From a virus, in the IMG/VR virus record IMGVR_UViG_3300025084_000006: DNA of 64,000 nt. One strand, 5' to 3'. The notes beneath the pieces are model-generated. The model saw nothing but the letters and a program-made list of their open reading frames with translations, made no database searches and was not told the origin of the DNA. The position numbers and the translations under genes were made by a program. Of this stretch, positions 45,992 through 59,711 are shown piece by piece. The first letter of the stretch is position 1. The number at the start of each line of letters is the position of its first letter.

Positions 45992-46511
45992 TTAACTTCC
46001 AGGCGATAGTGACTCTCAATGAATTGAATACCCTAGAGACTTCTTCGGCATGATGTTTTCTCATACCAGGGAAGAATATTCCTCTATTAGGTGCTGGTTC
46101 AACGTATGACCATGTGTTGTCTTCGTTTAGAAAAGCAGTTTTGCCTCCCCAGAGATGATCCCAATTACTATTTGCATAGAGTAGGAATGTTCTGCAGTCT
46201 TCATAATCTCCATCTGTATGAGGCATTGCCTTGTCACCATATACGTGTCCATTTGCATAAACACGTTCTAGTTCTAGATGAGGTTCGTCTACAGTTTCTC
46301 TAATGATATTTAGTAAATAATCTGAAAAGAACTCATCATCAGTCAATTCCATCTGCCAAAAGGGCAATCCAGATGATCCTCTTAAAGAACCATGACCATA
46401 CGCCCATTTTGGTTGAGTTACCTTCTCTAGTACTTCTGCAAAATCAAGATTGGTTAACGTTTGGTCGTAGATCTCCATATTCTCTAATAAAGTTAGCTCT
46501 AATTTGTTCAA
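45963..46511 (-). CDS. 2OG-Fe(II) oxygenase
   Basis: RVYANGH, PHTD, WGGKT, FPG...HH, RVTIAWK. Confidence 0.85.
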   Translation of the reverse strand: MNKLELTLLENMEIYDQTLTNLDFAEVLEKVTQPKWAYGHGSLRGSSGLPFWQMELTDDEFFSDYLLNIIRETVDEPHLELERVYANGHVYGDKAMPHTDGDYEDCRTFLLYANSNWDHLWGGKTAFLNEDNTWSYVEPAPNRGIFFPGMRKHHAEEVSRVFNSLRVTIAWKLNGATRKLYY

Positions 46512-47139
46512 ATGGCAAGAATGTGTCTACTGGTGCATCAGGACATGCCTTCATTGCTGCTAAAGTTGCTGTAGATTGTGCGATTAATTGATAACGCAAG
46601 AAAGTTTCATCAATAATACTAGTTGCCCACAAAATAACAACACGACGTTTGCCACTTGTAACAGGATTAACATGATGTATCAACCCAGTTGGGTATACTA
46701 ATGCATTACCTGCTTTTGGTTTAAAGGGTACAGATTGATCTCCTACTGATAGCATAAGTTCCCCGCCTTCATATTCGTCAGGTTCGGTAAGAAATATGCT
46801 AATACTATGATGTGTCTTGATACCAGAAATAGTGACATCATCAATATGCTTATTGTAAAACCCACCAGTTCTATACTCTGCAAAAATAGGAACAGTGAGT
46901 TCTTTGAAGATATACACTGATGTGAATTCTTCATTATTTCTCATTGCTGTTTGAACAACATCCAAACACTTTCTGAACTGAGGGGAAGTTTGTTGTATGA
47001 TGTGGTTGTCCTTTACATCAGGATTAACCTGATGTTTGCCATCTCTCTTTACTAATCCTGGTTTGGTTGGTGCATCATCAAAATAACTATTGATTCTTGA
47101 TAGTTCTTTACTATCAAGAAGTTCACTTTCATAAATCAT
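46444..47139 (-). CDS. PKHD/PiuC(YbiX)-like 2OG-Fe(II) hydroxylase
   Basis: Y..G.FY.KHIDD, SIFL..PDEYEGGEL, KAG.ALVYP...HHVNPVTSG.R. Confidence 0.88.
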   Translation of the reverse strand: MIYESELLDSKELSRINSYFDDAPTKPGLVKRDGKHQVNPDVKDNHIIQQTSPQFRKCLDVVQTAMRNNEEFTSVYIFKELTVPIFAEYRTGGFYNKHIDDVTISGIKTHHSISIFLTEPDEYEGGELMLSVGDQSVPFKPKAGNALVYPTGLIHHVNPVTSGKRRVVILWATSIIDETFLRYQLIAQSTATLAAMKACPDAPVDTFLPFEQIRANFIREYGDLRPNVNQS

Positions 47140-47140
47140 A

Positions 47141-48085
47141 TCAATCCTCTTCTTCCTCTTCTTTGAATAGTTCGTAGTCGAAATCAGGATAGATTTCTGT
47201 TACCTTCATTTCTTTAATAATATCAAGAATTTCTTTCTTGATAAGTTTTGTTGATGTAACTCTAGATCTAGCATAGATCAGTTGACTTAGCATTCTGCTG
47301 TCAAGGAAATCGGATGATGCATCATCATCGTAATTTGTCCACTGAGAAGCATCATCAGCATCCATGAATGCAGGTGCATCAGTTACACCATCTTCCAATT
47401 TACCATCTGGATATAGTTTGAGATAGTTCTTAGGATCAATAGGGAACACCTGTTGATACAATGATTTAGCAAAATCTAATGGTGATGGGAAATCTTTTGG
47501 ATTGGGGATACCAATAGATCTAATTTTTGCTCTCCAGTCCATCCAACGTTGCTTTTCACCCTCATAACTATCCTCAACGTCAGGCAATACATGCCAATCA
47601 GACGCACTAAGCATCATTCTTTTTTCTCTAAGTCTCTTCAACCATTTTGCATCAAAGAATGAATATTCTTTTTCAACACCATCAAGTTTCTTTAATGTAG
47701 CAGCAGTTTTAACACCAGCAGCAGCAATAAACAATGCCAAAGCAGTATTGTAAACTGCTTTTGCTTGTTCTACTGTGCCACCTTTAAACTGATATTCATT
47801 CCAATAACTAGATTCAGAAGCAAAATCATACTTCTGTCTGTTTCTCTGTGCATAAAAGGTATCATCACTATTGTAAGCAAAGAATAGCAATAGATCTTCA
47901 TCAGTATGCCAAAAAGAATCAATTTGTTCGTAGAACTTTGCCTTCAATTCGTCACTGAATTTAGTGCGAGTCATCGCAGCATCTACATTGATATCTACTT
48001 GATCAATCGGTGCAGTTAGAATGGTATTATTAACCAAATCTACTTGAAGGATTGGTCTTTTGATTTTTGGTGTTGTTGAGGTCAT
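47141..48085 (-). CDS. Tail-fibre assembly chaperone-like (Tfa-type) protein
   Basis: R..R..MLSASDW.VLPD.....W..WR.KIR.I.......FP.DP. Confidence 0.65.
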   Translation of the reverse strand: MTSTTPKIKRPILQVDLVNNTILTAPIDQVDINVDAAMTRTKFSDELKAKFYEQIDSFWHTDEDLLLFFAYNSDDTFYAQRNRQKYDFASESSYWNEYQFKGGTVEQAKAVYNTALALFIAAAGVKTAATLKKLDGVEKEYSFFDAKWLKRLREKRMMLSASDWHVLPDVEDSYEGEKQRWMDWRAKIRSIGIPNPKDFPSPLDFAKSLYQQVFPIDPKNYLKLYPDGKLEDGVTDAPAFMDADDASQWTNYDDDASSDFLDSRMLSQLIYARSRVTSTKLIKKEILDIIKEMKVTEIYPDFDYELFKEEEEED

Positions 48086-48801
48086 GCTAGGTGCGTTTTA
48101 ATATACCATCCTGTCAAAAGATATTTATCATCTTTAAGAAGGGTATTTCCTTTATGGACATGTGTCATGCCAGCAGGGAAGAATACAACTGTGCCTTTTG
48201 TTGGTCTAATTCTTCTACCTTGATACAAAAACTCAGTCTCACCACCTGCCTCTGGATCTACATCATTGAGATAAATCATCCACACAACTTCTCTTTGTGC
48301 ATGTGATGCAGCAGAGTTTTCATAATGCCATTGATGATATCCACCTTGAGGTAGTGTCTTCTGCATTTTAATATCACTTGAAAGCATAGGAACATTTTTT
48401 AATTGTCCGTACTCACTGATATAATGCTTGAGACAAGACTTCAGAAACTGATTAACTTGGTAACTTAGTCCATCATTGCAATAATTTGCTAGAAGTGAAA
48501 GATCTTTTCTATACAAATTACTACCATATTGGATGTGACCATCCATTTTAAATTCATCTACATATTCGGTATCAGTTTTTGATCCAAAATCTCTTTCTAG
48601 TTCCTCAAAATCAACACCTGAACTATTGCCATTCATCACATGCTCAAACCATGCAATACATTTATCACAAAATGGTTCAGGTACAAAATTGTCCCAAACT
48701 CCAATAAAGTCATCAAAGGATGCTTTTGTAATCTGCTCATTCATCATTAATTCTAAAGGTCTCCATTCTTGGACCTTCTTGGATAATGTATTAGATACCA
48801 T
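48082..48801 (-). CDS. 2OG-Fe(II) oxygenase (prolyl-hydroxylase-like)
   Basis: GGYHQWHYE, WMIYLND, GGETEF, P.KGTVVFFPA..THVH.G, KY..TGW. Confidence 0.9.
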   Translation of the reverse strand: MVSNTLSKKVQEWRPLELMMNEQITKASFDDFIGVWDNFVPEPFCDKCIAWFEHVMNGNSSGVDFEELERDFGSKTDTEYVDEFKMDGHIQYGSNLYRKDLSLLANYCNDGLSYQVNQFLKSCLKHYISEYGQLKNVPMLSSDIKMQKTLPQGGYHQWHYENSAASHAQREVVWMIYLNDVDPEAGGETEFLYQGRRIRPTKGTVVFFPAGMTHVHKGNTLLKDDKYLLTGWYIKTHLA

Positions 48802-48811
48802 TATTTAAAAC

Positions 48812-51800
48812 TCAGTATGCCTTTATTATATATTTGATTTTATGGAAGGGTGCTAGGATAGGAACCTTCCTTTGTGGATTCATTTTTGCTTGAGGAATTG
48901 GTTTGGTTGAGTTATTCCAACTAAACGTTGCTGGATTAAGTTCAATTTGAACGTCGCTTTGACTAAATTGTAAGTCAAATGTGGAATTAAACGTAGCAAG
49001 ACCAGATCTATATGCAACTGCATCGCCATTTACATTACCATAAGTATAATCATTTTGTGGATCTAATACAGGATCAGTACCCAACAAGTGTGCGTGAGTC
49101 AATGTTCCTGTGTAGATGGATAGATAGTTTTTAATTCTTGCTCTTCCTTCAGTTGTATCAATGACACCAGCATCTTGAGTGAATGCACCAATAGCAGCAA
49201 ATCTATCAGGTGAGAATGAACCACCCTTACCATCACTATTTGCTTCAGACTGCAGATCACCAGCAGGAGTTCCCCAATAGTTACCGAAAGCAACTGTTGT
49301 ACTACCAGATCCAGGCAATACATCTTCTAAAGAACCACGACCTGCTCTACTAAATTCTCTGTCTGCATCAGCATAGTTCCAGAAATTTGCATCTTCCCAG
49401 TAACCATCATCAACTGCGTCATCCTTACTATCATTTTGACCACTCCAACTTTGTGATCCCTCACTCGCAGTACGTAGATATGCGTAAATATTCCATGGAA
49501 TAACAGGATCACCATCAGGATCTTCTGGTTGACCAGTAATAAATTGGTGTTCATGTTGTGGTGGACGAACAGAAACACTAGTCACAGGACCAACATTAGC
49601 ATTAACATTACCTGTAACAGTAAAGTCAACTTCAGTAGTTACTAATTCTGTACCAAATGTTCTTGGTGTTCCTAATGTATAGAACGAAGATTCTGTTCCA
49701 CTAGTCTGTCCAGCTGGTGCAATAACCTGTTCTAAGGGATCAGGGGCAGCAGAAACATCTACATCATCAAAATACCACCAACCACCAGTAGAACCAGGAA
49801 GTTCTGCACTACCACCAGCAGAAGTAACAGGAACAGATGGAGATGATCCTTTATTAAAGTCTACTCTACCAGGTCCTACCATTCTAACATTACGATAGTC
49901 GGGTAAGTTGAAATTACCAGAGTATGTTTTTGATGCACTAATATAGGTTGCATTTCCGCCATAGGTGTTACCAATTGATTCCCATAACCAAGGATACTCT
50001 GCTGCTGCTACTGAAGTTCCATCACATTCAAGGAATCCAGGGAATCTAATGTCGATATCACCATAACCAAAGTTACCATCATCAGCAATAGTTTCTCTAG
50101 GTACAGGTAATACAGTACCAATAGCATAACCATCAAGCTTGGGTTGTCTATAAAAACTCTTGGCATTTGCAGGATCTGAATTAGATACTGCTTCCCATGC
50201 TTCTTCAGCAAAGAATGCATTCTTCTCGGAATACCAAACACCAAGATATGATGGAGGAACTGGTTTTACTGCATAGTTTACAGATCTAAGTGTAAATGGC
50301 GCTGCAGTTCCAAAACTAATATCTGCTACACCATAATGAGATAGTCCTACAACTGGATCTAAATTAGCATTACCTGGTTGTTGGTAAATAATCGTTACAA
50401 ATACTGGATTATTACCAGGATCAGGACTCAATGTACGAGGTCCAGGTGCTGGTGTGTCCCCATTAAGAGAGAACAATACGTTACCGATGTTTTCGCCTGT
50501 AGCAAAATTAAACTCATTATAGGCAACTAGACTGGATGCTGATATTGTAATCGGTAAGTTGAAATTTGTCAAGCCTATAGGTCCGATCACACTCGCTCCA
50601 CCAGGAGTCCTATTTAAAACTTGATTGATTGGAGTAAAAGATGGACTAGTATCAGGACCAGTCCAATTAGTAATAGACCATGTTGGGACAAATCTATCAC
50701 CAACATTAATACCCATTTTTGTTGATCCTTGACCAGGAAGCAAGGGATTACTAATATCATTACTACCATCAAGAACTAATTCAATAATATCACCATTTTG
50801 AACTTGAATGTTACTAATAATACCAGATGATCCACCATTAACACTAATTCTCGGATTTGCTGTAGATGTAGTGTCACCACTCCTCAAAGAAACAGGAACA
50901 AATATACCAGGAGTTAGACCAGCAATTAATGCTTTGCCACTAGATGCCGATCCAGATTGAACAGTTGATCTATAATTAACATTACCAGGAATCTGTTCGA
51001 CGAGATTTTGGAAGACAAAACTATCAGGATTTTCATCAAGACCAGCACCTGTCGTCACTATCCATCCAGAAATACCATTTCCATCACCAATAGTTACACT
51101 AAAATTCTTTGGCGAGAACTCACTTCCAGAACTAGTTCCTCTTAATTGAACATATTGACCATTCTGAACTGTTTTATTATTGCCCCATGTACCAATAATA
51201 TTAGATAAAACTTCAAAACCATCAGCATTTGTAAATGTTGTATTGAAATTAGAGACAGCAATTTCAGCACCATTATCAACAGTCATAAGTGCTTGAGTTG
51301 TCAACCCTAAAATCTGAGGTCTGTCGCTATAGACAAGAGCATTCAACTCTTGGTTATTTAAACTACCGAAATTAGGTGCAGGATTTGGAGTGTTGATAGG
51401 AATAGCACCTGTAGTGATTTCCCATTCAGCAGAACCAGTACCAACAACAACGTTAACATTTTTGGTATCAGATGGTGCCGAAGAAGCTCTTAGTCTAACT
51501 TGAATTCTGTCAAGGTTAGAAATAGTCTGGTTAATTGCTCTTGTCCATGGACCCCAAGCACCATATGAACTAGTTGCTGTGAGATATTGATTAACACGAT
51601 AAGCGTAGTCATTAGGATCTAATACGTTAGATGTGACTGATAATGGTGCTTCAGTTCCAGGATCTAAACCAGTAATAGTAATAACTTCTTCACCACTACG
51701 AAGAGGATCTGGTTCTCCAGGAGTTAATCCAGTATATGCAACGCCATCATCAGGAAACGCAGTTTGTGCATATGTATACATGACATCACTTTCTGCTTCA

Positions 51801-51994
51801 TCTATATTCTGTAGAAAGAATGGATCTGGAGCAAAATCTTCTAACTTGGTTTCAATAACCCAAGTAATAGTGAGCTCACCAATATCAATAGTTACATTAG
51901 TAACTTCCGAGTAACTAGGAGGTGCCTCATACCTAAACTGGATGGACTGACCTTCCTCAACATATAGTGGGGTAGCACTAAACTGATACGCCAT
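48812..51994 (-). CDS. Tail-fibre protein (1060 aa): N-terminal half-repeat, four beta-rich repeats, then tail-collar and HxH tip domains
   Basis: GYAIGTVLP..PGFLECDG..YPWL...IGNTYGG...FNLPDY; QHEH and THAH; C-terminus KYIIKAY. Confidence 0.85.
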   Translation of the reverse strand: MAYQFSATPLYVEEGQSIQFRYEAPPSYSEVTNVTIDIGELTITWVIETKLEDFAPDPFFLQNIDEAESDVMYTYAQTAFPDDGVAYTGLTPGEPDPLRSGEEVITITGLDPGTEAPLSVTSNVLDPNDYAYRVNQYLTATSSYGAWGPWTRAINQTISNLDRIQVRLRASSAPSDTKNVNVVVGTGSAEWEITTGAIPINTPNPAPNFGSLNNQELNALVYSDRPQILGLTTQALMTVDNGAEIAVSNFNTTFTNADGFEVLSNIIGTWGNNKTVQNGQYVQLRGTSSGSEFSPKNFSVTIGDGNGISGWIVTTGAGLDENPDSFVFQNLVEQIPGNVNYRSTVQSGSASSGKALIAGLTPGIFVPVSLRSGDTTSTANPRISVNGGSSGIISNIQVQNGDIIELVLDGSNDISNPLLPGQGSTKMGINVGDRFVPTWSITNWTGPDTSPSFTPINQVLNRTPGGASVIGPIGLTNFNLPITISASSLVAYNEFNFATGENIGNVLFSLNGDTPAPGPRTLSPDPGNNPVFVTIIYQQPGNANLDPVVGLSHYGVADISFGTAAPFTLRSVNYAVKPVPPSYLGVWYSEKNAFFAEEAWEAVSNSDPANAKSFYRQPKLDGYAIGTVLPVPRETIADDGNFGYGDIDIRFPGFLECDGTSVAAAEYPWLWESIGNTYGGNATYISASKTYSGNFNLPDYRNVRMVGPGRVDFNKGSSPSVPVTSAGGSAELPGSTGGWWYFDDVDVSAAPDPLEQVIAPAGQTSGTESSFYTLGTPRTFGTELVTTEVDFTVTGNVNANVGPVTSVSVRPPQHEHQFITGQPEDPDGDPVIPWNIYAYLRTASEGSQSWSGQNDSKDDAVDDGYWEDANFWNYADADREFSRAGRGSLEDVLPGSGSTTVAFGNYWGTPAGDLQSEANSDGKGGSFSPDRFAAIGAFTQDAGVIDTTEGRARIKNYLSIYTGTLTHAHLLGTDPVLDPQNDYTYGNVNGDAVAYRSGLATFNSTFDLQFSQSDVQIELNPATFSWNNSTKPIPQAKMNPQRKVPILAPFHKIKYIIKAY

Positions 51995-52020
51995 GCGAAC
52001 TTATACTTTATCCCGTATTG

Positions 52021-52027
52021 TATTTAG
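52021..52027 (-). promoter_or_regulatory. Late promoter (CTAAATA) overlapping the upstream stop codon
   Basis: tatttag about 27 nt upstream of ATG 51994. Confidence 0.55.
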
Positions 52028-53526
52028 GGTGATTGTCTGACATCATTCCAATTTGCTTCAATTAGAGGATCAGCATCGTCAAATTTAACTTTAATTGGTT
52101 TGTTCGATCTAATTTCTACAGCAACATCAATATCATCAACAATAATAGGGTCACTCAGTACTGACTCTTGATCAGGTGCCAATACATTATCTGTTGGAAC
52201 TTGATTTAGACTAGGGTCAATAGTAATAGAGTCAGGTAGTTCATCAATACTGACATCTATAGAGTTCGATACGTTGGTAGTACCACCGCCACCAGAAGCA
52301 GCTAAAGAAATTTCTATACCAAATACACCTTGTACTGTCCAAGGAATACTTAAATTAACGGTACCTGTAATGGCACTACCACTTTGATCAGATGTTGTTC
52401 CAGGTAAACTAATATTTTGTGAAACAGTAATAAAACTACCAGTAGTAGGATTTCTAACACTATAAACTGCTGTACCATTGACTCCACCTGTTGCATACCT
52501 ATATGTCACTACAAACCCTACGCTTGCTCCATAATCTATATTAGTTGGAACATTATAACTAATTTCTGGTAGTTGATTTACTACGATAGTCACAGAATCA
52601 CTATCACTACCACCAGGTCCGCTGGCAGATAAAGTATATGTGGTTGTACTAGATGGAGATACAGATTTATTGCTACTAAACAATACAGCACCAATACCTT
52701 GATTAATAGTAGCAGGAGTATTAGCAGAACCTGATACTACCCAAGTTAGAGTTGTTGATTGTCCAACAATAATAGGGTTTGAAGATACACCTGTAAATTG
52801 AGCAACTACTGGTTGATATACAGTTATAGTTACATCAGTAGTTCTGCTGGTGATACCATAATAACTCGAAACTAACGTATAAGTTGTACTATTAGTAGGA
52901 GATTTTGTTAAAGACCCACTAGACGCAACACTACCAGAACCTGTCAAAGTTTGTGATGTAGAACCACTGACAGACCATGCTAGAGTAGCATTCGCACCCG
53001 CAATTATAACATTAGGAGTTATAGTAAGAGTATTAGATGGTGTGGGATATACACAAGTTCCATTATTAACATCTGCGTTTGGATTATAGTTTGAAGCACG
53101 GGAATCTGTACATCCATAAACAAGTGGTGGTGGAAGAAATCCTTGCCACTTAATTGCGATGCCCCAAGGTCCACCACCACTATTATTAGCATTAGCACTA
53201 AGAGTATATGTGCCTGGTCCATAATAATTTGTGGTAGTGACTAAACTTCCAATGTCTGGACTAGAATTTGGATTTCCAAATCCACCCATTCCCATTTCAT
53301 AGTTGCCATTAATATAAATCCCTCCATTATCATCACAATTAGCATAGAATCGTTGTCTACCATAATTATTAAAAGTGATAGTCCATGAATATGTCCTATT
53401 AGGACCAGGAGTACCACTGGCATCCCTACCCCCAACATTCCATTTGTTCATGAACTGAGACCAATTCGGCTCATAAAATTTAGGACCGCCGTTGGATCTA
53501 CTACTAAAATTAAAATCTTGTGTCAT
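52024..53526 (-). CDS. Adhesin-like paralogue 3 (PA14/jelly-roll-like N-domain, GCTD..A.NYNP.A motif, Ig-like repeats, shared C-domain)
   Basis: FYANCDDNGGIYING; YGCTDSRASNYNPNA..NGTC; C-terminus DELPD...NW.DVR. Confidence 0.8.
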   Translation of the reverse strand: MTQDFNFSSRSNGGPKFYEPNWSQFMNKWNVGGRDASGTPGPNRTYSWTITFNNYGRQRFYANCDDNGGIYINGNYEMGMGGFGNPNSSPDIGSLVTTTNYYGPGTYTLSANANNSGGGPWGIAIKWQGFLPPPLVYGCTDSRASNYNPNADVNNGTCVYPTPSNTLTITPNVIIAGANATLAWSVSGSTSQTLTGSGSVASSGSLTKSPTNSTTYTLVSSYYGITSRTTDVTITVYQPVVAQFTGVSSNPIIVGQSTTLTWVVSGSANTPATINQGIGAVLFSSNKSVSPSSTTTYTLSASGPGGSDSDSVTIVVNQLPEISYNVPTNIDYGASVGFVVTYRYATGGVNGTAVYSVRNPTTGSFITVSQNISLPGTTSDQSGSAITGTVNLSIPWTVQGVFGIEISLAASGGGGTTNVSNSIDVSIDELPDSITIDPSLNQVPTDNVLAPDQESVLSDPIIVDDIDVAVEIRSNKPIKVKFDDADPLIEANWNDVRQSP

Positions 53527-55283
53527 TAGTTAGGACGCACGTCGTACCAATTGGAGTTTATTAATGGATCATCGTCATCAAACCTAACTTGTATTGGTTT
53601 GTTTGATTTAATTTCAACAGCAACATCAATATCACTTACAATAATAGGATCACTGAGAACAATATCAAAATCAGGTGCTTCTACATCATCTGATGGTATT
53701 TGTTCTAAACTATTTGGTAGAGTAATATTATCGGGTAATTCATCAACATTAACATTTATAGTTTCTAATTGATTTGTAACTCCTCCCGCACCATTGGAAG
53801 ACAAAGAAATATCTATAGCAAATACACCATGTAAACCATATGGAATATTAGCAACAACATTACCTGTTTTCTCTGCACCTGATTCATCCGAACTAGTTCC
53901 AGATAAAAATACATTTTGTACTTGAGTTTCGTTCAAACCAGTAGTGGAATTTCTCATAGTATATGTAATAGTTCCATTGACACCACCACTAGCGTATCTA
54001 TATGTTACTGGAAATTCTAAAGTATCTCCATAATCTATATTAGTTGGAACATTATAACTAATTTCTGGTAATTGATATACTGAAATTGTTACACTATCAC
54101 TATCAGTACCACCAAGACCACTAGCACTAATTGTGTACGTAGTGCTGGTTGATGGTGAAACTGAAGTATTTGATGTTAAAACAACAGCACCAATACCTTG
54201 ATTAATAGATGCTGTGGTGCCACCAGCACCAGAAACAACCCAATTCAATGTAGAATTTTGTCCAACAATTATTGAGTTAGGGGATGCAGAAATGGTAGCA
54301 ATTGTTGGTGGATAAACTGTAATGCTAGCATCTGCTGTATCATTACCTGCTAATCCAATTGCAGTCATTGTATAAGTTCTAGAACTACCAGGACTAATTG
54401 TAGTTGAACCAGAAACACCAACAGAACCAATACCTTGATTGATACTTCTTGATGTAGAGTCAGCAGTACTCCACGACAATGTGGCAGATTGTCCAGCAAT
54501 TATAGTATTAGGTGATATAGTAAATGAAGTGATCTCGGCAATTGTGACTGTGAATGATAGCGTCATGCTACCATTACCACTATTGGTTGACTGATTAACA
54601 AAACTAACTTTACTGCTGTTGTATCTGGAAGTTCCACCGCCTCCTCCACCGCCGCCATAGTTACAATCAACACCTTGACCGCCTCCACCGCCGCCTGAAG
54701 AACCGCCGCCTCCACCGCCTCCGCCTCCGCCGTCTCCACCACCAGGAGAACCGCCGCCGCCACCATTAGATAAACCAACACCACCAGATGAAAACCCACC
54801 ACCAGTGCCGCCAGTGCCACCAGGACGTTGAGCACCACCACATGAGTAGGATCCACCTCCACCACCGCCACCGCCTCCAGCGGTAACTACAATATTTCCA
54901 CCCAAATAAAATACAGATGCTGCTCCCCCACCTGCTCCACAACCAGACCATCCACTAGTTCCATCATCACCACCTTTGCCACCTTTGCCACTTCCACCAG
55001 CAATATTTCCGCCAGGACCACCAACAGCAGCACCAGATCCACCAGGACCATTACTACCTCTAGCACCCCATCTACCAAGAAAAGATCTATTGCTATTTGA
55101 TGTTGGAATATTAAAATTACCAGATCTACCATTACCTCCACCGCCACCAGGACCACCAGAGTCAAAACCTCCAGAACCTCCTGATCCTGCTGCAATACTT
55201 AAAGAAATATTTTGAGCACCACCAGGAATTGTTCCTGATTGACCCCCAAATGGTATGTTGTAACTAACAGGTGATGAACTCAT
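53526..55283 (-). CDS. Adhesin-like paralogue 2 (polyglycine N-domain, Ig-like repeats, shared C-domain)
   Basis: About 200 aa of glycine-rich blocks reminiscent of T-even gp38-type polyglycine sandwiches; C-terminus DELPD...NWYDVR. Confidence 0.8.
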   Translation of the reverse strand: MSSSPVSYNIPFGGQSGTIPGGAQNISLSIAAGSGGSGGFDSGGPGGGGGNGRSGNFNIPTSNSNRSFLGRWGARGSNGPGGSGAAVGGPGGNIAGGSGKGGKGGDDGTSGWSGCGAGGGAASVFYLGGNIVVTAGGGGGGGGGSYSCGGAQRPGGTGGTGGGFSSGGVGLSNGGGGGSPGGGDGGGGGGGGGGSSGGGGGGQGVDCNYGGGGGGGGTSRYNSSKVSFVNQSTNSGNGSMTLSFTVTIAEITSFTISPNTIIAGQSATLSWSTADSTSRSINQGIGSVGVSGSTTISPGSSRTYTMTAIGLAGNDTADASITVYPPTIATISASPNSIIVGQNSTLNWVVSGAGGTTASINQGIGAVVLTSNTSVSPSTSTTYTISASGLGGTDSDSVTISVYQLPEISYNVPTNIDYGDTLEFPVTYRYASGGVNGTITYTMRNSTTGLNETQVQNVFLSGTSSDESGAEKTGNVVANIPYGLHGVFAIDISLSSNGAGGVTNQLETINVNVDELPDNITLPNSLEQIPSDDVEAPDFDIVLSDPIIVSDIDVAVEIKSNKPIQVRFDDDDPLINSNWYDVRPN

Positions 55284-57112
55284 TAAACGTCCCTACTTCT
55301 TACATCTTTCCAATTTGCTTCAATTAGAGGATCAGCATCGTCAAACCTAACTTGAATTGGTTTGTCTGATCTAATTTCAACAGGAATATCAATATCCGTG
55401 ACAACAATGGGGTCACTGAGAACAATATCAATTTCTGGTGCTTCTACGTCATCAGATGGTATTTGTTCTAAACTATCTGGTATAGTAATATTATCAGGTA
55501 ACTCATCAATTTCAATAGTTAATGTTGGAGTAACATTTACATTAGTTGTTCCACCACATCCCTGTGCTGATAAACTATATGAAATAAACTCAGGTCCAAA
55601 ATCAGTATATACAATGGATGAATTAAATGTTTCAGTTTTTTGTGTAATATTTTTGTCACTATCATTGCCTGCCAAGTCAAATACAACATTAGCAACACTA
55701 CCATCAGTATAAGTCATCAATGCTGTTACTTGAACAGTTGGTGCTGCAGCATATGTAATATCTACATTAAATTGTTCCCCATAATCTATATTAGCTGGGA
55801 AATTGGCACTAATTTGAGGTATTTGACAAACATTAGCTGTTACACTAGCAGTATCAGTACCTCCAGGACCACTAGCAGTAATAGTATATGTAGTTGATGT
55901 AGATGGACTAACAGGAGTATTTGATGTCAGTAGTACAGCACCAATACCTTGATTAATAGTTGCTGTATCAGCATCACCACTAACAACCCAAGACAAAGTT
56001 GGAGTTTGACCGACTGTAATTGGGTTAGGATTAATAAAAATAGTAGCAACTGTCGGTTCATAAACAGTTAGATCTACACTTTTTGTAGTTGTAGATCCTA
56101 ATGCACCACCGAAATTTTTTGCAGTTATAGTGTAAGTACGTGATACACTCGGATTAACTACTATACTACCATTTAATCCAAGTGGTAAAACATTACCAAT
56201 TCCATTATTAATTGATAGAAAATCAACATTAACACCAGTAACATCCCAACTTAACGTGGCAGAACCAGGGTCAATATAGTTATTAGGAGTAATTGTAAAC
56301 GTAACTGTTGGTGGAGGTGGAGGTAATACCGTAACAGTGACTTGTCGTGTCGTAGTACCAGCAGGACCAACAACAGTTAAAGTATAATTTGTTGATGATG
56401 TTGGATTAACAGTAATAGTACCTGATGGATCAGAAACTACTCCTACATCTGGTAATATATTTGCTGATGTAGTGTCTCCAAATACAATCCACGATAGTAC
56501 TGCAGTTCCATTATATGGAATAGTAACACCACTTTGCTCATTAAAGTTAGTCTGATGATTGGGATCTGTAGAGAATGATGCCGATGGAGGAAAATCAACT
56601 GCCTGATCTGCAGACCATCTTTCACCTTGATCACTCTCTTCATAAACAACATTAATACCTTCTGCTGCACATCGTTCAATAAAATAGTTGTACGACGCTA
56701 GTACAGTAGATTTTCTCATCGAACCCGAAACGTCTAGCCACAAGGATACATAAGAACCTGGTGGTTGACTTCCTAGATTACAAATAGCAAACCAATCTGA
56801 TCTTGAAGCAACGTTGCCGTTATCTCTAGCAACTGTAACAGTATGAGTTAATGAGTCATTAATATAACTGGTTGGTCTTAATAGTTGAGACTGAGTTCGT
56901 CCTGGTTGTAGTAACCAAAACTCTCTACCAGTACCACTATTGTTGGGATATAAATCTCTAAATCTGGTCCAATCGTTAGCAATCGCCTGTGCGCTGCTAC
57001 TTACACTTTGTGGATAAGGTGCTGGTGGTGGAAAACTATTATAATTATTTCTTGCCTGATTACCAACCGATTCGTCAATAATTGATATACATTGTGTCCT
57101 TGGAACTACCAT
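55283..57112 (-). CDS. Adhesin-like paralogue 1 (VWA/MIDAS-like N-domain, Ig-like repeats, shared C-domain)
   Basis: SLWLDVSGSM (DxSxS); C-terminus DELPD...NWKDVR. Confidence 0.8.
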   Translation of the reverse strand: MVVPRTQCISIIDESVGNQARNNYNSFPPPAPYPQSVSSSAQAIANDWTRFRDLYPNNSGTGREFWLLQPGRTQSQLLRPTSYINDSLTHTVTVARDNGNVASRSDWFAICNLGSQPPGSYVSLWLDVSGSMRKSTVLASYNYFIERCAAEGINVVYEESDQGERWSADQAVDFPPSASFSTDPNHQTNFNEQSGVTIPYNGTAVLSWIVFGDTTSANILPDVGVVSDPSGTITVNPTSSTNYTLTVVGPAGTTTRQVTVTVLPPPPPTVTFTITPNNYIDPGSATLSWDVTGVNVDFLSINNGIGNVLPLGLNGSIVVNPSVSRTYTITAKNFGGALGSTTTKSVDLTVYEPTVATIFINPNPITVGQTPTLSWVVSGDADTATINQGIGAVLLTSNTPVSPSTSTTYTITASGPGGTDTASVTANVCQIPQISANFPANIDYGEQFNVDITYAAAPTVQVTALMTYTDGSVANVVFDLAGNDSDKNITQKTETFNSSIVYTDFGPEFISYSLSAQGCGGTTNVNVTPTLTIEIDELPDNITIPDSLEQIPSDDVEAPEIDIVLSDPIVVTDIDIPVEIRSDKPIQVRFDDADPLIEANWKDVRSRDV

Positions 57113-57124
57113 ATCTCAACCTCC

Positions 57125-58015
57125 TCAAATTTTAATAATGTAACTAACAATAATGAATGGAGTAACCACATCATCCAACTTAGTGATTCTTTCTGTGGAA
57201 ATATTTAATACAGTATTCACATTATCAGCAGGGATTGGAAATACAGTATGCTGATATTGAAAATTTTGAGTGTAAAGTGTTGGTTTGGCAATTTTATGTG
57301 TGTGCGATGATAATGCCGACGTATTTGAATTTGAAACGTCTAGAACATTACCAGAACCTGAGTTACCAATATCTTGTCCATCATCTTTACCATCACCACC
57401 AACAATATGAGATGTAGTATAGTTTAGATATCCTACATCAGCATCATGAGCATGTCCTTGAAAGTTTTCGATATCAAGGAATTGTTCTGTTGATGTAGTT
57501 TCAAATTGATATTTGGGACTAGATTTAAAATCATAATTAGTTGAAACAGGAACTCCTTCAAAACTACCAATAAAGTCACATGTTAGTTGAGTTCCTTCAT
57601 TACAAATAACTTCTGCTGCTGGTCCTACTCTATATTCATCTGTATCACCAACAGTTGTTGAAAGATAATCACCAACACTTCTGCTAGGAATAATAACTTT
57701 TGATCCTAAGTCAGGTAATTGAAATTGTCCTAGATCTCCAGTTTCTTCATCTGGTTCTCTAAGATCAACATTTAGTTTTTTAAATTTAGATTCACTACCT
57801 ACACCTAATACCTTACTTAAGGCAAGATATTTTTGAGCATTTTGAATTGACCCATCACACTTCAAAAATCCTGCGGGAATAATTTCCTGAAACGATGTAA
57901 AATTTGGATCATTTACACTACCAAGTGACGATGTTGCATGAGTTTGGATAGATCCAATAAATCCACCAAAATGTGCTTTAATTTGAGAGTAGTTATTATT
58001 GGTATTAAATGCCAT
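57125..58015 (-). CDS. Tail-collar fibre protein (296 aa)
   Basis: IPAGFLKCDGS..Y.AL..VLG..FQLPDL; GHAH and SHTH; C-terminus YIIKI. Confidence 0.85.
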   Translation of the reverse strand: MAFNTNNNYSQIKAHFGGFIGSIQTHATSSLGSVNDPNFTSFQEIIPAGFLKCDGSIQNAQKYLALSKVLGVGSESKFKKLNVDLREPDEETGDLGQFQLPDLGSKVIIPSRSVGDYLSTTVGDTDEYRVGPAAEVICNEGTQLTCDFIGSFEGVPVSTNYDFKSSPKYQFETTSTEQFLDIENFQGHAHDADVGYLNYTTSHIVGGDGKDDGQDIGNSGSGNVLDVSNSNTSALSSHTHKIAKPTLYTQNFQYQHTVFPIPADNVNTVLNISTERITKLDDVVTPFIIVSYIIKI

Positions 58016-58016
58016 T

Positions 58017-59711
58017 TTAATATGCTCGGATTACGTAGACACATGTCATGCCTGGTTGTGTCGTGTTGAGGTTTATTTGGAAAACACCAACATTTCTAGA
58101 ATTATCTAGGTTTAAATTATCATTAGGAGCAGTAACATACACATTGATACTATTTTCTGGTCTCATTCCTGCTCTATCAAAGTTAACATCAAATTCATCA
58201 TGGGTATGAGCAAGAATTTGATCCTGTGTTGCTGTTGATGGACTTTTTACTCCAAAATCCCAACCAGGATTACTATTAAATGTATCATAAGTATCGAATG
58301 CAGAAGGCGCAGATAGTCCAGAATCTGACGTTCCAGCATATTCTAGAAGATCAGGATACCAGTTTGTAAGACCTGACCCTATATTTGCAATAGGAATTCC
58401 ACCGATACCATAATCAACATCTCTTTTTTCTCCAGGACCTTTATTAAAACCAAAGATACCACCAGACAGAGCACCCTTCTTCAAACCAACACCTTCATTA
58501 AATGTTCTGTGGTTTAGTGGTTGATTAAGCTCTGCTTGAATGGGAGTATAAGTAACCTGCTTTGGTGTCCAGTTAACTGGTGGACTTTCTGCATTAATGA
58601 TAGCAAGCGTTCTGCCTGGTTGTCCACCACCAAGACCAGATCTGCCTCTATTGTAGTCTCCCATAGTATACTCTAGATCAAATTCATTATCATTTGTAAT
58701 AAAAATATCACTATCACTAGTTTGAACTTCTGCAGTAAAGTTAAAGTTCAAAGATGACCATGGAATAACACCTTCTCCAGGTTGTGTAGTAGGATTAACT
58801 TTAATAGTATCATATCTACCACCATGCCCATGTCCCTTAATATGTCCTCTACCCAATTTTCTAGGTCCAAAGAACATAACTTTACTACCTTCACCTGATC
58901 CAGGAATGACTATATTACCCTGTAACTTACCACCATAGTAATAATCTACTCCACCACCAGATCCAGGTGTTGTATTTCTTTCGTTTAATTCAAATACAAC
59001 ATCGGTTGCAACATCATTAAAAGATGTGGGCACACCAGTGTCGCTATTTGCTCCAATATATGGTGTAATTTGTGTAAATGCATCCGACTCTTGGTCAAAT
59101 GCTCTGCCTGTAGGAGTACCAGGACCAAAATAATCTTCTTGAACATCAACCAATGGTCTGTTTAAAAGATTTGGAAGAACAATTTCGCCAGCATAATTCG
59201 GAAACTCTCCACCAAAAGTAGAAACAGATCCCTGCTTAATTGACTGAACAGCAACAGACATATCAGAACCATTACCAGAGTTACCTCCAGGAATACTTAA
59301 TACATCACCAACAACATAATTAACACCTGGTGCTAAAAGTTGGAATGTAACTGTACCACCTACACCATTAGGAGCATTGCCTGATTGGGTGCCAGCATCG
59401 CCTACAATGATAGCAAAGTTAGCTCCACCCCCACTACCATCTAAAGGTGAATAGATGTATGTTCCAGGTATTCTTCCTGCTTGTACTGCTGCAGTTCCAG
59501 CAAAATTTTCAATTAGACCTTCAGTTACTGCTGTTGATAGATTATATGTATCTCCAATTGCTCTAGACAGCAAAGGAAAATCACCTGCACTAATCTGTGA
59601 TCCATCACAAGGAATCCACCCATTGGGGATACTTGAGATACCCCCTGTCCATGGCATGATTGTACCAATAGCAGCTGCTTTGGCAGTTCTTATTTCCTGA
59701 TAGAATGACAT
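58017..59711 (-). CDS. Tail-collar / short tail fibre-like protein (564 aa)
   Basis: IGTIMPW.G...IPNGWIPCDG...FPLL...IGDTY; GHGH and AHTH; C-terminus YVIRAY. Confidence 0.85.
   Translation of the reverse strand: MSFYQEIRTAKAAAIGTIMPWTGGISSIPNGWIPCDGSQISAGDFPLLSRAIGDTYNLSTAVTEGLIENFAGTAAVQAGRIPGTYIYSPLDGSGGGANFAIIVGDAGTQSGNAPNGVGGTVTFQLLAPGVNYVVGDVLSIPGGNSGNGSDMSVAVQSIKQGSVSTFGGEFPNYAGEIVLPNLLNRPLVDVQEDYFGPGTPTGRAFDQESDAFTQITPYIGANSDTGVPTSFNDVATDVVFELNERNTTPGSGGGVDYYYGGKLQGNIVIPGSGEGSKVMFFGPRKLGRGHIKGHGHGGRYDTIKVNPTTQPGEGVIPWSSLNFNFTAEVQTSDSDIFITNDNEFDLEYTMGDYNRGRSGLGGGQPGRTLAIINAESPPVNWTPKQVTYTPIQAELNQPLNHRTFNEGVGLKKGALSGGIFGFNKGPGEKRDVDYGIGGIPIANIGSGLTNWYPDLLEYAGTSDSGLSAPSAFDTYDTFNSNPGWDFGVKSPSTATQDQILAHTHDEFDVNFDRAGMRPENSINVYVTAPNDNLNLDNSRNVGVFQINLNTTQPGMTCVYVIRAY

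Follow-up and report, generated by a model that had tools for sequence, protein, structure and literature searches.

The adsorption apparatus of T4-like cyanophages is poorly understood, and T4 g10, g11, g12, g34, g35, g37 and wac do not figure in the list of T4-type genes that cyanomyoviruses have in common (PMC2984593). How such a phage could mount several unrelated heads on one fibre is the question raised by four adjacent genes in the IMG/VR virus record IMGVR_UViG_3300025084_000006, of which a stretch of 64,000 nucleotides (nt), called the window here, was analysed. Base composition, PHROG matches and megablast searches assign the window to a T4-like marine cyanomyovirus (Kyanoviridae), the closest isolates being Syn1 and S-RIM44, with about 73% DNA identity to the window. 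The four genes lie on the minus strand. Three encode proteins of 609, 585 and 500 amino acids (aa) (P0004, 55283–57112; P0003, 53526–55283; P0002, 52024–53526), and the fourth encodes a 1060-aa fibre protein (P0001, 48812–51994). A prediction made earlier from the sequence alone (the original prediction), whose four open reading frames were all recovered at their places, had proposed that each of the three proteins ends in the first half (A) of a domain, that the fibre begins with the second half (B), and that the two halves fold together in trans. The results below indicate that A and B are almost certainly complementary halves of a repeat that the fibre also holds intact, and that a composite domain formed by the two is the probable joint between the head-bearing proteins and the fibre.

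Complementarity of the orphan halves

The fibre protein contains four intact repeats, D1 (aa 50–197), D2 (198–316), D3 (317–446) and D4 (447–576), which are encoded at 50267–51847 on the minus strand. In an AlphaFold2 (AF2) monomer model based on a 30-sequence alignment, D1 to D4 are immunoglobulin-like (Ig-like) sandwiches with a predicted local distance difference test (pLDDT) of about 75–93, and by Foldseek the model resembles tandem Ig-like chains such as titin and cadherins.

As a yardstick for the orphan halves, the 98-aa intact repeat of the bacterial protein P0214 was used, which was recovered by a 74-position A-half profile among 1.8 billion representative proteins. It follows the pattern D.TPDPF.F...SDPITVTGI...ISGG.YSI.G...TLTIGG..F.VTT. 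P0214 itself has 1528 aa and carries six near-identical tandem copies of the repeat at 525–1122, between Lcl_C and FG-GAP domains. The repeat is widespread; it has no Pfam family, and no solved structure matches the intact-repeat protein P0041 by sequence.

By hhalign, D1, D2, D3 and D4 align to positions 1–97 of the P0214 repeat at 96, 94, 88 and 64%, respectively, so that the four full repeats ascribed to the fibre by the original prediction are found both as modelled sandwiches and as profile matches. The B-half profile aligns to positions 44–96 (88%), and the confident part of the A-half profile to positions 1–37 (76%), a match that includes ..SDPI.V.DIDIPVEI against ..SDPITVTGIDAPATI. When the two are joined in the order A+B (a profile from 18 genomes), the alignment runs from end to end over positions 1–97 at 95.3%, with an E value of 2e-8 and a score of 49, as against scores of 31 and 33 for the separate halves. 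In the reversed order, B+A, the B part alone aligns. The profile alignment thus places the orphan pieces on complementary parts of the repeat, and the fibre does open with a C-terminal half-repeat at aa 1–50 (51845–51994, minus strand), as had been proposed.

Within the window, the A profile matches exactly three C-termini (E from 1e-32 to 1e-35), namely those of the three upstream genes that had been said to end in it. On the minus strand, these are found at 52027–52245 in the 500-aa protein (E = 1.4e-32), at 53529–53750 in the 585-aa protein (aa 512–585; E = 5e-34) and at 55286–55507 in the 609-aa protein (aa 536–609; E = 1.6e-35). The B profile matches the fibre N-terminus (E = 3e-33) and, weakly, the ends of D1 and D2 only; with hhalign, the C-terminal ends of D1 and D2 are matched at 82–83%. 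The start of D4 is weakly matched by the A profile in several relatives. The homology of A is clear only against the bacterial canonical repeat and within the joined profile, the comparison of A alone with D1 to D4 of the fibre being weak (at most 10% by hhalign). Pairwise searches are of little use here: BLASTP of the fibre N-terminus against the fibre itself finds no internal repeats, and the C-terminal tails have a single short match in the fibre, where D2 meets D3 (E = 1.7e-5, from a very small database). The repeats have diverged too far for such searches, hence the use of profiles.

Taken at the level of sequence profiles, the split-repeat observation is far beyond chance, and it is close to certain that the repeat found in four intact copies in the fibre is the one to which A and B each supply a complementary half. 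The 32 close homologues of the fibre family are collinear from residue 1, and all start with the B-half at residues 1–3; B likewise opens every other fibre with a readable N-terminus. The A-halves end in ...W.DVR.I, and the fibres begin with M(A/P/T)Y.(F/Y)S. A split intein was considered and rejected on inspection, since the halves align to a beta-sandwich repeat and not to an intein, and the junctions have no conserved nucleophiles.

Position and co-occurrence of the halves

Among 122 cluster representatives drawn from the 1.8 billion proteins, all except three have a last A-half that ends no more than 10 aa from the C-terminus; P0214 is one of the three, with weak A matches inside its intact tandem repeats only. 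Internal A-halves are found solely in natural fusions that bear two or three of them, for example three in P0144 and P0146 and two in gp032 of ACG-2014e (L025:6592–11961), with further cases in L061 and L062. In these fusions two or three complete head-stalk-A units are held in one polypeptide, and a Gly/Ala-rich linker of about 15 residues leads from the A-half into the next head, with no B-half there. It follows that A-halves need no free C-terminus. A fused chain with A followed by B was also sought in the 1.8 billion proteins, but nothing came up except the fusions with several A-halves and one unrelated protein, of bacterial origin, whose repeats are intact.

At least nine genera, together with some 80 metagenomic loci, have both A and B, nearly always in adjacent genes. 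In IMG/VR, 77 loci have a fibre gene that starts with B and more than 400 nt of sequence upstream of it; an A-half ends less than 120 nt upstream in 73 of these, and in the other four one small gene is inserted between the last A-gene and the fibre gene. The inserted gene resembles, by motif, a 2-oxoglutarate (2OG)-Fe(II) oxygenase in two lineages (L047:1190–1820 and L086:5010–5630).

The number of A-halves per fibre gene ranges from 2 to 6 with a mode of 3. In dereplicated loci with at least 9.4 kb upstream, seven have two A-halves, fourteen have three, one has four and two have five, while S-CAM3 has six and S-CAM4 has two. In the nearest record, a fragment of 102 kb, three A-halves are present and no more. 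A variable number of A-ending genes upstream of a B-starting gene, which the original prediction had suggested looking for in relatives, is found in them.

Folding of the halves alone and together

In the AF2 monomer model of the 500-aa protein (65 aligned sequences), the stalk (aa 164–426) has a pLDDT above 90, whereas the A-half (428–500) has a pLDDT of 45–69 and almost no secondary structure, apart from a short predicted hairpin (479–481 and 493–495). The A-half is nevertheless the best-conserved segment in the 65-row alignment, and a low pLDDT in spite of strong conservation is the pattern expected of a segment that folds upon binding. The B-half (fibre 1–50) has a pLDDT of 42–73, and only its last hairpin forms alone (31–38 and 41–48), which corresponds to the closing hairpin of each intact domain. 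In the monomer models, then, neither half folds on its own, in keeping with the proposal that the halves are not complete domains.

For the prediction of the complex, A (421–500) was supplied with B (1–55), with alignments for both, and three controls were run. The interaction prediction score from aligned errors (ipSAE) is 0.44, 0.42 and 0.44, compared with 0.00 for the best of the three controls. The runs agree in at least 96% of contacts, and the partner pLDDT is at least 66. The A chain reaches a pLDDT of 60–62 beside B and 44–47 beside unrelated partners; the B chain reaches 66–68 beside A and 41 beside an unrelated partner. In the calibration of the score, 58 of 80 solved complexes passed the mark, as did 2 of 110 mismatched pairs; of these, only 7 of the solved complexes but both mismatches had scores of 0.60 or less. 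The outcome is rated as weak support; overall, direct binding of A and B is held to be likely.

Homogenisation of the A-halves

The A-halves are 68% identical within a genome and 47% identical between genomes. At the DNA level, the three regions of A-half and stalk in the window (52040–52264, 53539–53763 and 55302–55526) are 73–85% identical, as are 52472–52771 and 53971–54270. The paralogues share exact tracts in a mosaic manner, for example a stretch of 32 identical nt in the first and third genes only, which points to gene conversion among the three. Such conversion of the A-halves in turn suggests that the proteins bearing them, regarded as plugs, are functionally interchangeable.

The proposed joint and its alternatives

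The reading considered probable, for which the comparison across genomes and loci is the strongest evidence, is that an A-half and the B-half combine in trans to form a single Ig-like sandwich, which joins the head-stalk proteins non-covalently to the N-terminal arm of the fibre. A beta-sandwich repeat of about 100 aa would thus be split between genes, with its first half (A, ~73 aa) ending each upstream head-stalk virion protein and its second half (B, ~50 aa) opening the collar fibre, ahead of the four intact copies. After synthesis, A and B, each unable to fold alone, would combine in trans as a composite sandwich, and this tight non-covalent joint would continue the string of beads in the order head, stalk, A.B, D1–D4 and fibre shaft. 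Since all the A-halves of a genome are near-identical plugs, one fibre complex could carry different heads: the plugs would fit a single type of socket, and the fibre complex would bear PA14-like lectin, Gly-rich or DxSxS/VWA-like heads. By the gene order, A would be synthesised last in its protein and B first in the fibre, which would favour assembly near the ribosome, and the gene order together with a late promoter of the fibre gene itself may help assembly and set the stoichiometry.

Several observations weigh against this reading. The complex prediction is rated 'weak support' by the calibration of the tool, and no interface was returned. The A-half aligns confidently over the first 37 positions of the repeat only; its last ~25 residues (PIQVRFDD...W.DVR) have no secure counterpart in the repeat, and A and B together are ~25 aa longer than the canonical repeat. 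The identity of the A-halves within a genome is at least partly due to gene conversion and should not be taken as independent proof of a shared partner. In a mirror-tree analysis with partial Mantel correlation given the flanking domains (52 pairs), the partial r between A and B is 0.37 (permutation p = 0.0005), and that of a non-interacting control pair is 0.44. Finally, the trimeric state of the fibre, which bears on the number of sockets, is putative. The interpretation given in the original prediction is partly supported: the complementarity of the halves, the poor folding of each alone, their co-occurrence, the unsplit relative and the lack of a recoding route (see below) speak for it, and the binding itself is weakly supported by the predicted complex, the best control of which scored 0.00. 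A charge swap between A and B seen in S-CAM3 (A ...VE.I, B ...KYRAP) was also considered and set aside, since it is not general and other lineages pair Arg with Lys.

The halves might instead be relics of a gene fission that now act independently, with A docking another part of the virion (the collar proteins or the giant fibre) and the fibre N-terminus docking elsewhere on the baseplate. Poor order in isolation is a trait of docking peptides that both pieces share, and the weakness of the complex prediction, the presence of three other fibre-type proteins encoded just upstream and the gene inserted between the last A-gene and the fibre gene in 4 of the 77 loci would also agree with such an arrangement. 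It is held to be unlikely, however, because it leaves unexplained the exact collinear complementarity of the halves, the constant co-occurrence of A and B and the absence of both in an unsplit relative (see below), and because the controls of the complex prediction remain at zero.

It may also be supposed that each half is an autonomous small beta-sheet domain, a shortened yet stable descendant of the repeat, in which case the proteins would be separate parts of the virion and need not be joined at all. At 73 aa, the A-half is longer than a canonical half of about 55 aa, and the hairpin predicted in A alone and the last hairpin of B also speak for such domains. Against this stand the low pLDDT of A and its near lack of secondary structure, despite a deep and conserved alignment in which the neighbouring domains exceed 90. 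Moreover, a half sandwich would expose its core, and the strict placement of the halves at chain termini and their adjacency would remain without an explanation. Autonomous folding therefore appears quite improbable, and co-folding of A and B in trans remains the preferred reading.

The junction between the A-genes and the fibre gene

A syntenic contig from a related cyanophage shows the locus in an unsplit form, such as the original prediction had suggested looking for in relatives. Between the genes for a small collar protein and a 2OG oxygenase it has a single gene (L028:10001–13720) for a protein of 1239 aa (P0038), with a Gly-rich head, intact repeats and a fibre-type C-terminus, and the locus has no A or B halves. 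The C-terminus is homologous to the window fibre (E = 1e-53) and ends in ...KYIIKAF, compared with ...KYIIKAY in the window. The Gly-rich heads of P0038 and of the 585-aa protein show no significant similarity by BLASTP or phmmer, and the Rosetta-stone argument rests, for this reason, on the fibre part and on synteny.

In a lineage with the split form, the last A-gene and the fibre gene lie in the same frame and are separated by stop codons alone (L044:1100–1230, L045:8100–8230 and L055:2420–2550). These stops stand directly before the ATG and are TAG, TAG TAG and TAA TAG, respectively (...RRI-stop-stop-MAYQFS...); there is no spacer, and hence no room for a promoter motif. Junctions of this kind show A and B to be adjoining parts of a single virtual chain. 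If the lone TAG of L044 were suppressed, a covalent fusion would result.

In the window, both junctions joining the three A-ending genes are TAATG overlaps, so that the coupling of these genes was correctly read in the original prediction, as was the 29-nt spacer that separates the last of them from the ATG of the fibre gene, which is in a different reading frame. In the fibre frame, a TAA occurs 9 nt 5' of the ATG, and more stops occur further upstream. The spacer holds a late-promoter-like sequence, CTAAATAC (52020–52027, minus strand), which shares bases with the stop codon that closes the last A-gene. Nine genomes from different genera keep the T4-type late-promoter-like motif (C/A)TAAATA(C/A/T) 5' of the fibre ATG. 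Judged from this motif, the fibre gene probably has its own late promoter in addition to read-through from the upstream genes, in which case more fibre than plug protein could be made.

Across ten genomes the offset between the frames of the A-gene and the fibre gene is 0, 1 or 2, and a stop lies 3–33 nt before the ATG in every fibre frame. From these reading frames, no readthrough or frameshift route joins the two genes, and simple readthrough fusion is excluded as had been argued. Recoding (stop readthrough, frameshift or ribosome hopping) that would covalently fuse the last A-protein to the fibre is thus extremely improbable: the genes are adjacent with a short spacer, and L044 has a single in-frame TAG, but the stops in the window and in the ten genomes, the double stops in L045 and L055 and the conserved promoter-like motif in the spacer all oppose it, and the other one to five A-ending proteins never adjoin a B-half.

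Heads, plugs and sockets

The three A-ending proteins match phrog_2155 ('virion structural protein'; T4-GC 737–739) with E values of 1.8e-144, 2.4e-193 and 3.8e-200, and all finish at position 1190–1191 of the 1193 positions of the profile, a match that takes in the C-terminal stalk and tail they share. Two of them have S-PM2 orthologues (1704 and 1749 nt) that are entered as detected in virions, by 3 peptides apiece; the entry is in Table S8 of Sullivan et al. 2010 (PMC3037559), where the mass spectrometry of Clokie et al. 2008 is summarised.

From AF2, phrog_2155 and Atlas, the 500-aa protein (52024–53526, minus strand) may be divided into a PA14-like head (aa ~1–135), the Ig-like stalk and the A-half. 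The 585-aa and 609-aa proteins have a common layout of head, Ig-like stalk and A-half, the head being Gly-rich in the former and bearing the DVSGSM motif in the latter (aa 127–132; 56717–56734, minus strand), a DxSxS motif like that of a metal-ion-dependent adhesion site (MIDAS). Of the three head types named in the original prediction, the Gly-rich one is plain in the sequence. The PA14-like reading of the head in the 500-aa protein is a lead only (Atlas feature score 0.88, TM 0.57–0.64). VWA is indicated by the DVSGSM motif alone, and the VWA-like and Gly-rich heads have no assignment in Pfam or Atlas. The Gly-rich head is coded by a degenerate repeat of the CCGCC(T/G)CC type as read on the plus strand (54637–54788), which yields runs of GGN codons and is likely, from its sequence, to be a site of length variation. 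It may be speculated that the heads bind the host surface and serve to diversify the host range.

The C-terminal part of the fibre (48815–50266, minus strand) contains a collar domain and two HxH motifs (HEH and HAH). The collar domain (aa 652–702; 49889–50041, minus strand; E = 5.8e-8) is the sole Pfam domain of the fibre, and residues 577–1060 are modelled poorly as a monomer (pLDDT < 50). The collar domain, the HxH motifs and the poor monomer model together hint that the C-terminal region is probably trimeric. Collar domains are also found in the products of two genes upstream of the A-genes, at 57125–58015 (E = 1.7e-5) and 58017–59711 (E = 7.6e-10). If the fibre formed a heterotrimer with both of these collar proteins, there would be one socket per fibre, not three.

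Two pictures of how the sockets are filled may be drawn. All three sockets of a trimer may be filled at once, which would fit the most frequent number of plug genes, three, and the occurrence of three plugs in one polypeptide. It is also conceivable that the plugs are interchangeable and compete, giving a mixed decoration, which fits the range of 2 to 6 plug genes and the homogenised A-halves. The two pictures are not mutually exclusive. It is a tentative and rather doubtful suggestion that three identical sockets are filled from a pool of 2–6 plugs, or by one three-plug chain, and that the mix of heads varies from one virion or fibre to another. Were the mixed-plug arrangement true, it would amount to a combinatorial variation of receptor specificity at the level of assembly in very abundant phages of the ocean, kept flexible by gene conversion among the plugs.

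Relation to known systems

The closest solved precedent is found in the Lactococcus phage Tuc2009, in which a 25-residue C-terminal hairpin of BppU completes the beta-sheet of domain 2 of BppA, forming a titin-Ig-like composite seen in a crystal structure; BppA carries a carbohydrate-binding module (mBio 2016; PMC4742702). As is predicted here, a head-bearing accessory protein is held on the adsorption scaffold by an Ig-like sandwich made of two chains, the pieces of the joint are at chain termini, and one of the heads in the window is lectin-like if the PA14 lead holds. The differences are that in Tuc2009 a two-strand hairpin of 25 residues completes a nearly whole domain, whereas here the cut is in mid-domain, with pieces of ~73 and 50 aa; that one type of socket here serves 2–6 paralogous plugs; that the socket protein holds four intact copies of the repeat; and that the phage is a T4-like myovirus.

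In chaperone-usher pili (Fim, Pap), an incomplete Ig-like fold is likewise completed by a terminal segment of another subunit, which produces a very stable non-covalent chain. The pilins, however, lack a single G strand and require a periplasmic chaperone and an usher, while here one chain would supply about four strands and its partner the remainder, and assembly would be cytoplasmic with no dedicated chaperone for the joint evident. A joint of the donor-strand type of these pili was rejected, since the repeat is divided close to its middle (A covering 1–37 or more, and B 44–96, of 98 positions) and there are no chaperone-usher genes at the locus.

Several receptor-binding proteins encoded in a row share one attachment point through conserved terminal docking modules in TSP1–4 of CBA120, gp63.1–gp66 of G7C and the adaptors of SP6 and K1-5. 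In those phages each docking module is a whole domain, and binding takes place between surfaces. In contrast, the docking module predicted here would exist only once two chains combine. With T4 gp12, a homotrimer attached to the baseplate through its N-terminus, the likeness consists of the Collar domain and the HxH motifs; gp12 is not known to have N-terminal Ig-like repeats or a half-domain.

The fibre is nevertheless annotated as 'gp12 short tail fiber' in databases; phrog_4924 ('short tail fiber') covers residues 1–1060 of the fibre over profile positions 1–1022 of 1022 (E = 0), and the family label is T4-GC 740, 'short tail fiber'. A profile of the fibre family, with the B-half included, has no match to any Protein Data Bank chain at E values up to 0.01. 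Orthology with T4 gp12 was rejected on the grounds that the Pfam similarity is confined to the 50-aa collar domain and that no such chain was found; since the match is limited to that domain, the name is a carried-over annotation.

In the podophage A1002, fibre dimers are docked on a 'rope' protein by an 'augmented beta-sheet fold' (PLoS Biol 2026; PMC13730344). There, too, a beta-sheet is shared between fibre chains, but there whole folds are augmented at their edge strands along the rope protein and no domain is split, and the geometry and the family of the phage are different.

No description of this split-domain module of cyanophages was found in the literature, which agrees with the view that it had not been described. 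That view does not extend to the principle, as a composite Ig-like domain has been solved for BppU–BppA of Tuc2009 (PMC4742702). Completion of a fold between chains as a joint in phage fibres is thus a known principle, and this cyanophage form of it is new. Fold completion may be a widespread and under-recognised joint among viral fibre proteins, with Tuc2009 as a solved case.

If co-folding of A and B is true, it explains how several unrelated heads are mounted on one fibre, allows new heads to be added by gene duplication or fusion without redesign of the interface, and provides a natural counterpart to engineered split-domain connectors. It constitutes a proposed rule of assembly for one conserved fibre module, specifying which proteins, which ends and which fold are involved, and culturable phages such as S-PM2 and Syn1 are suited to its study.

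Neighbouring genes

The order of the genes around the joint is conserved in nine isolate genomes belonging to at least seven genera (Syn1, S-RIM44, S-PM2, S-H9-2, S-CAM1, ACG-2014i, ACG-2014e, S-CAM3 and S-CAM4), and consists of a giant fibre protein, two collar proteins, a run of 'virion structural proteins', the fibre, a 2OG-Fe(II) oxygenase and a tail assembly chaperone. The gene at 47141–48085 (minus strand), downstream of the fibre gene, is a probable tail-fibre assembly chaperone gene by synteny with genes of Syn1, S-RIM44 and S-PM2 that carry the annotation 'tail assembly chaperone'. The match of its product to Pfam Phage_tail_APC is weak (E = 0.0011) and under the cut-off.

Genes for 2OG-Fe(II) oxygenases, at 46444–47139 and 48082–48801 in the window, border the fibre and chaperone genes in all relatives. 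These flanking genes, and the oxygenase-like gene inserted in L047 and L086, suggest that the fibre proteins may be hydroxylated or modified in some other way.

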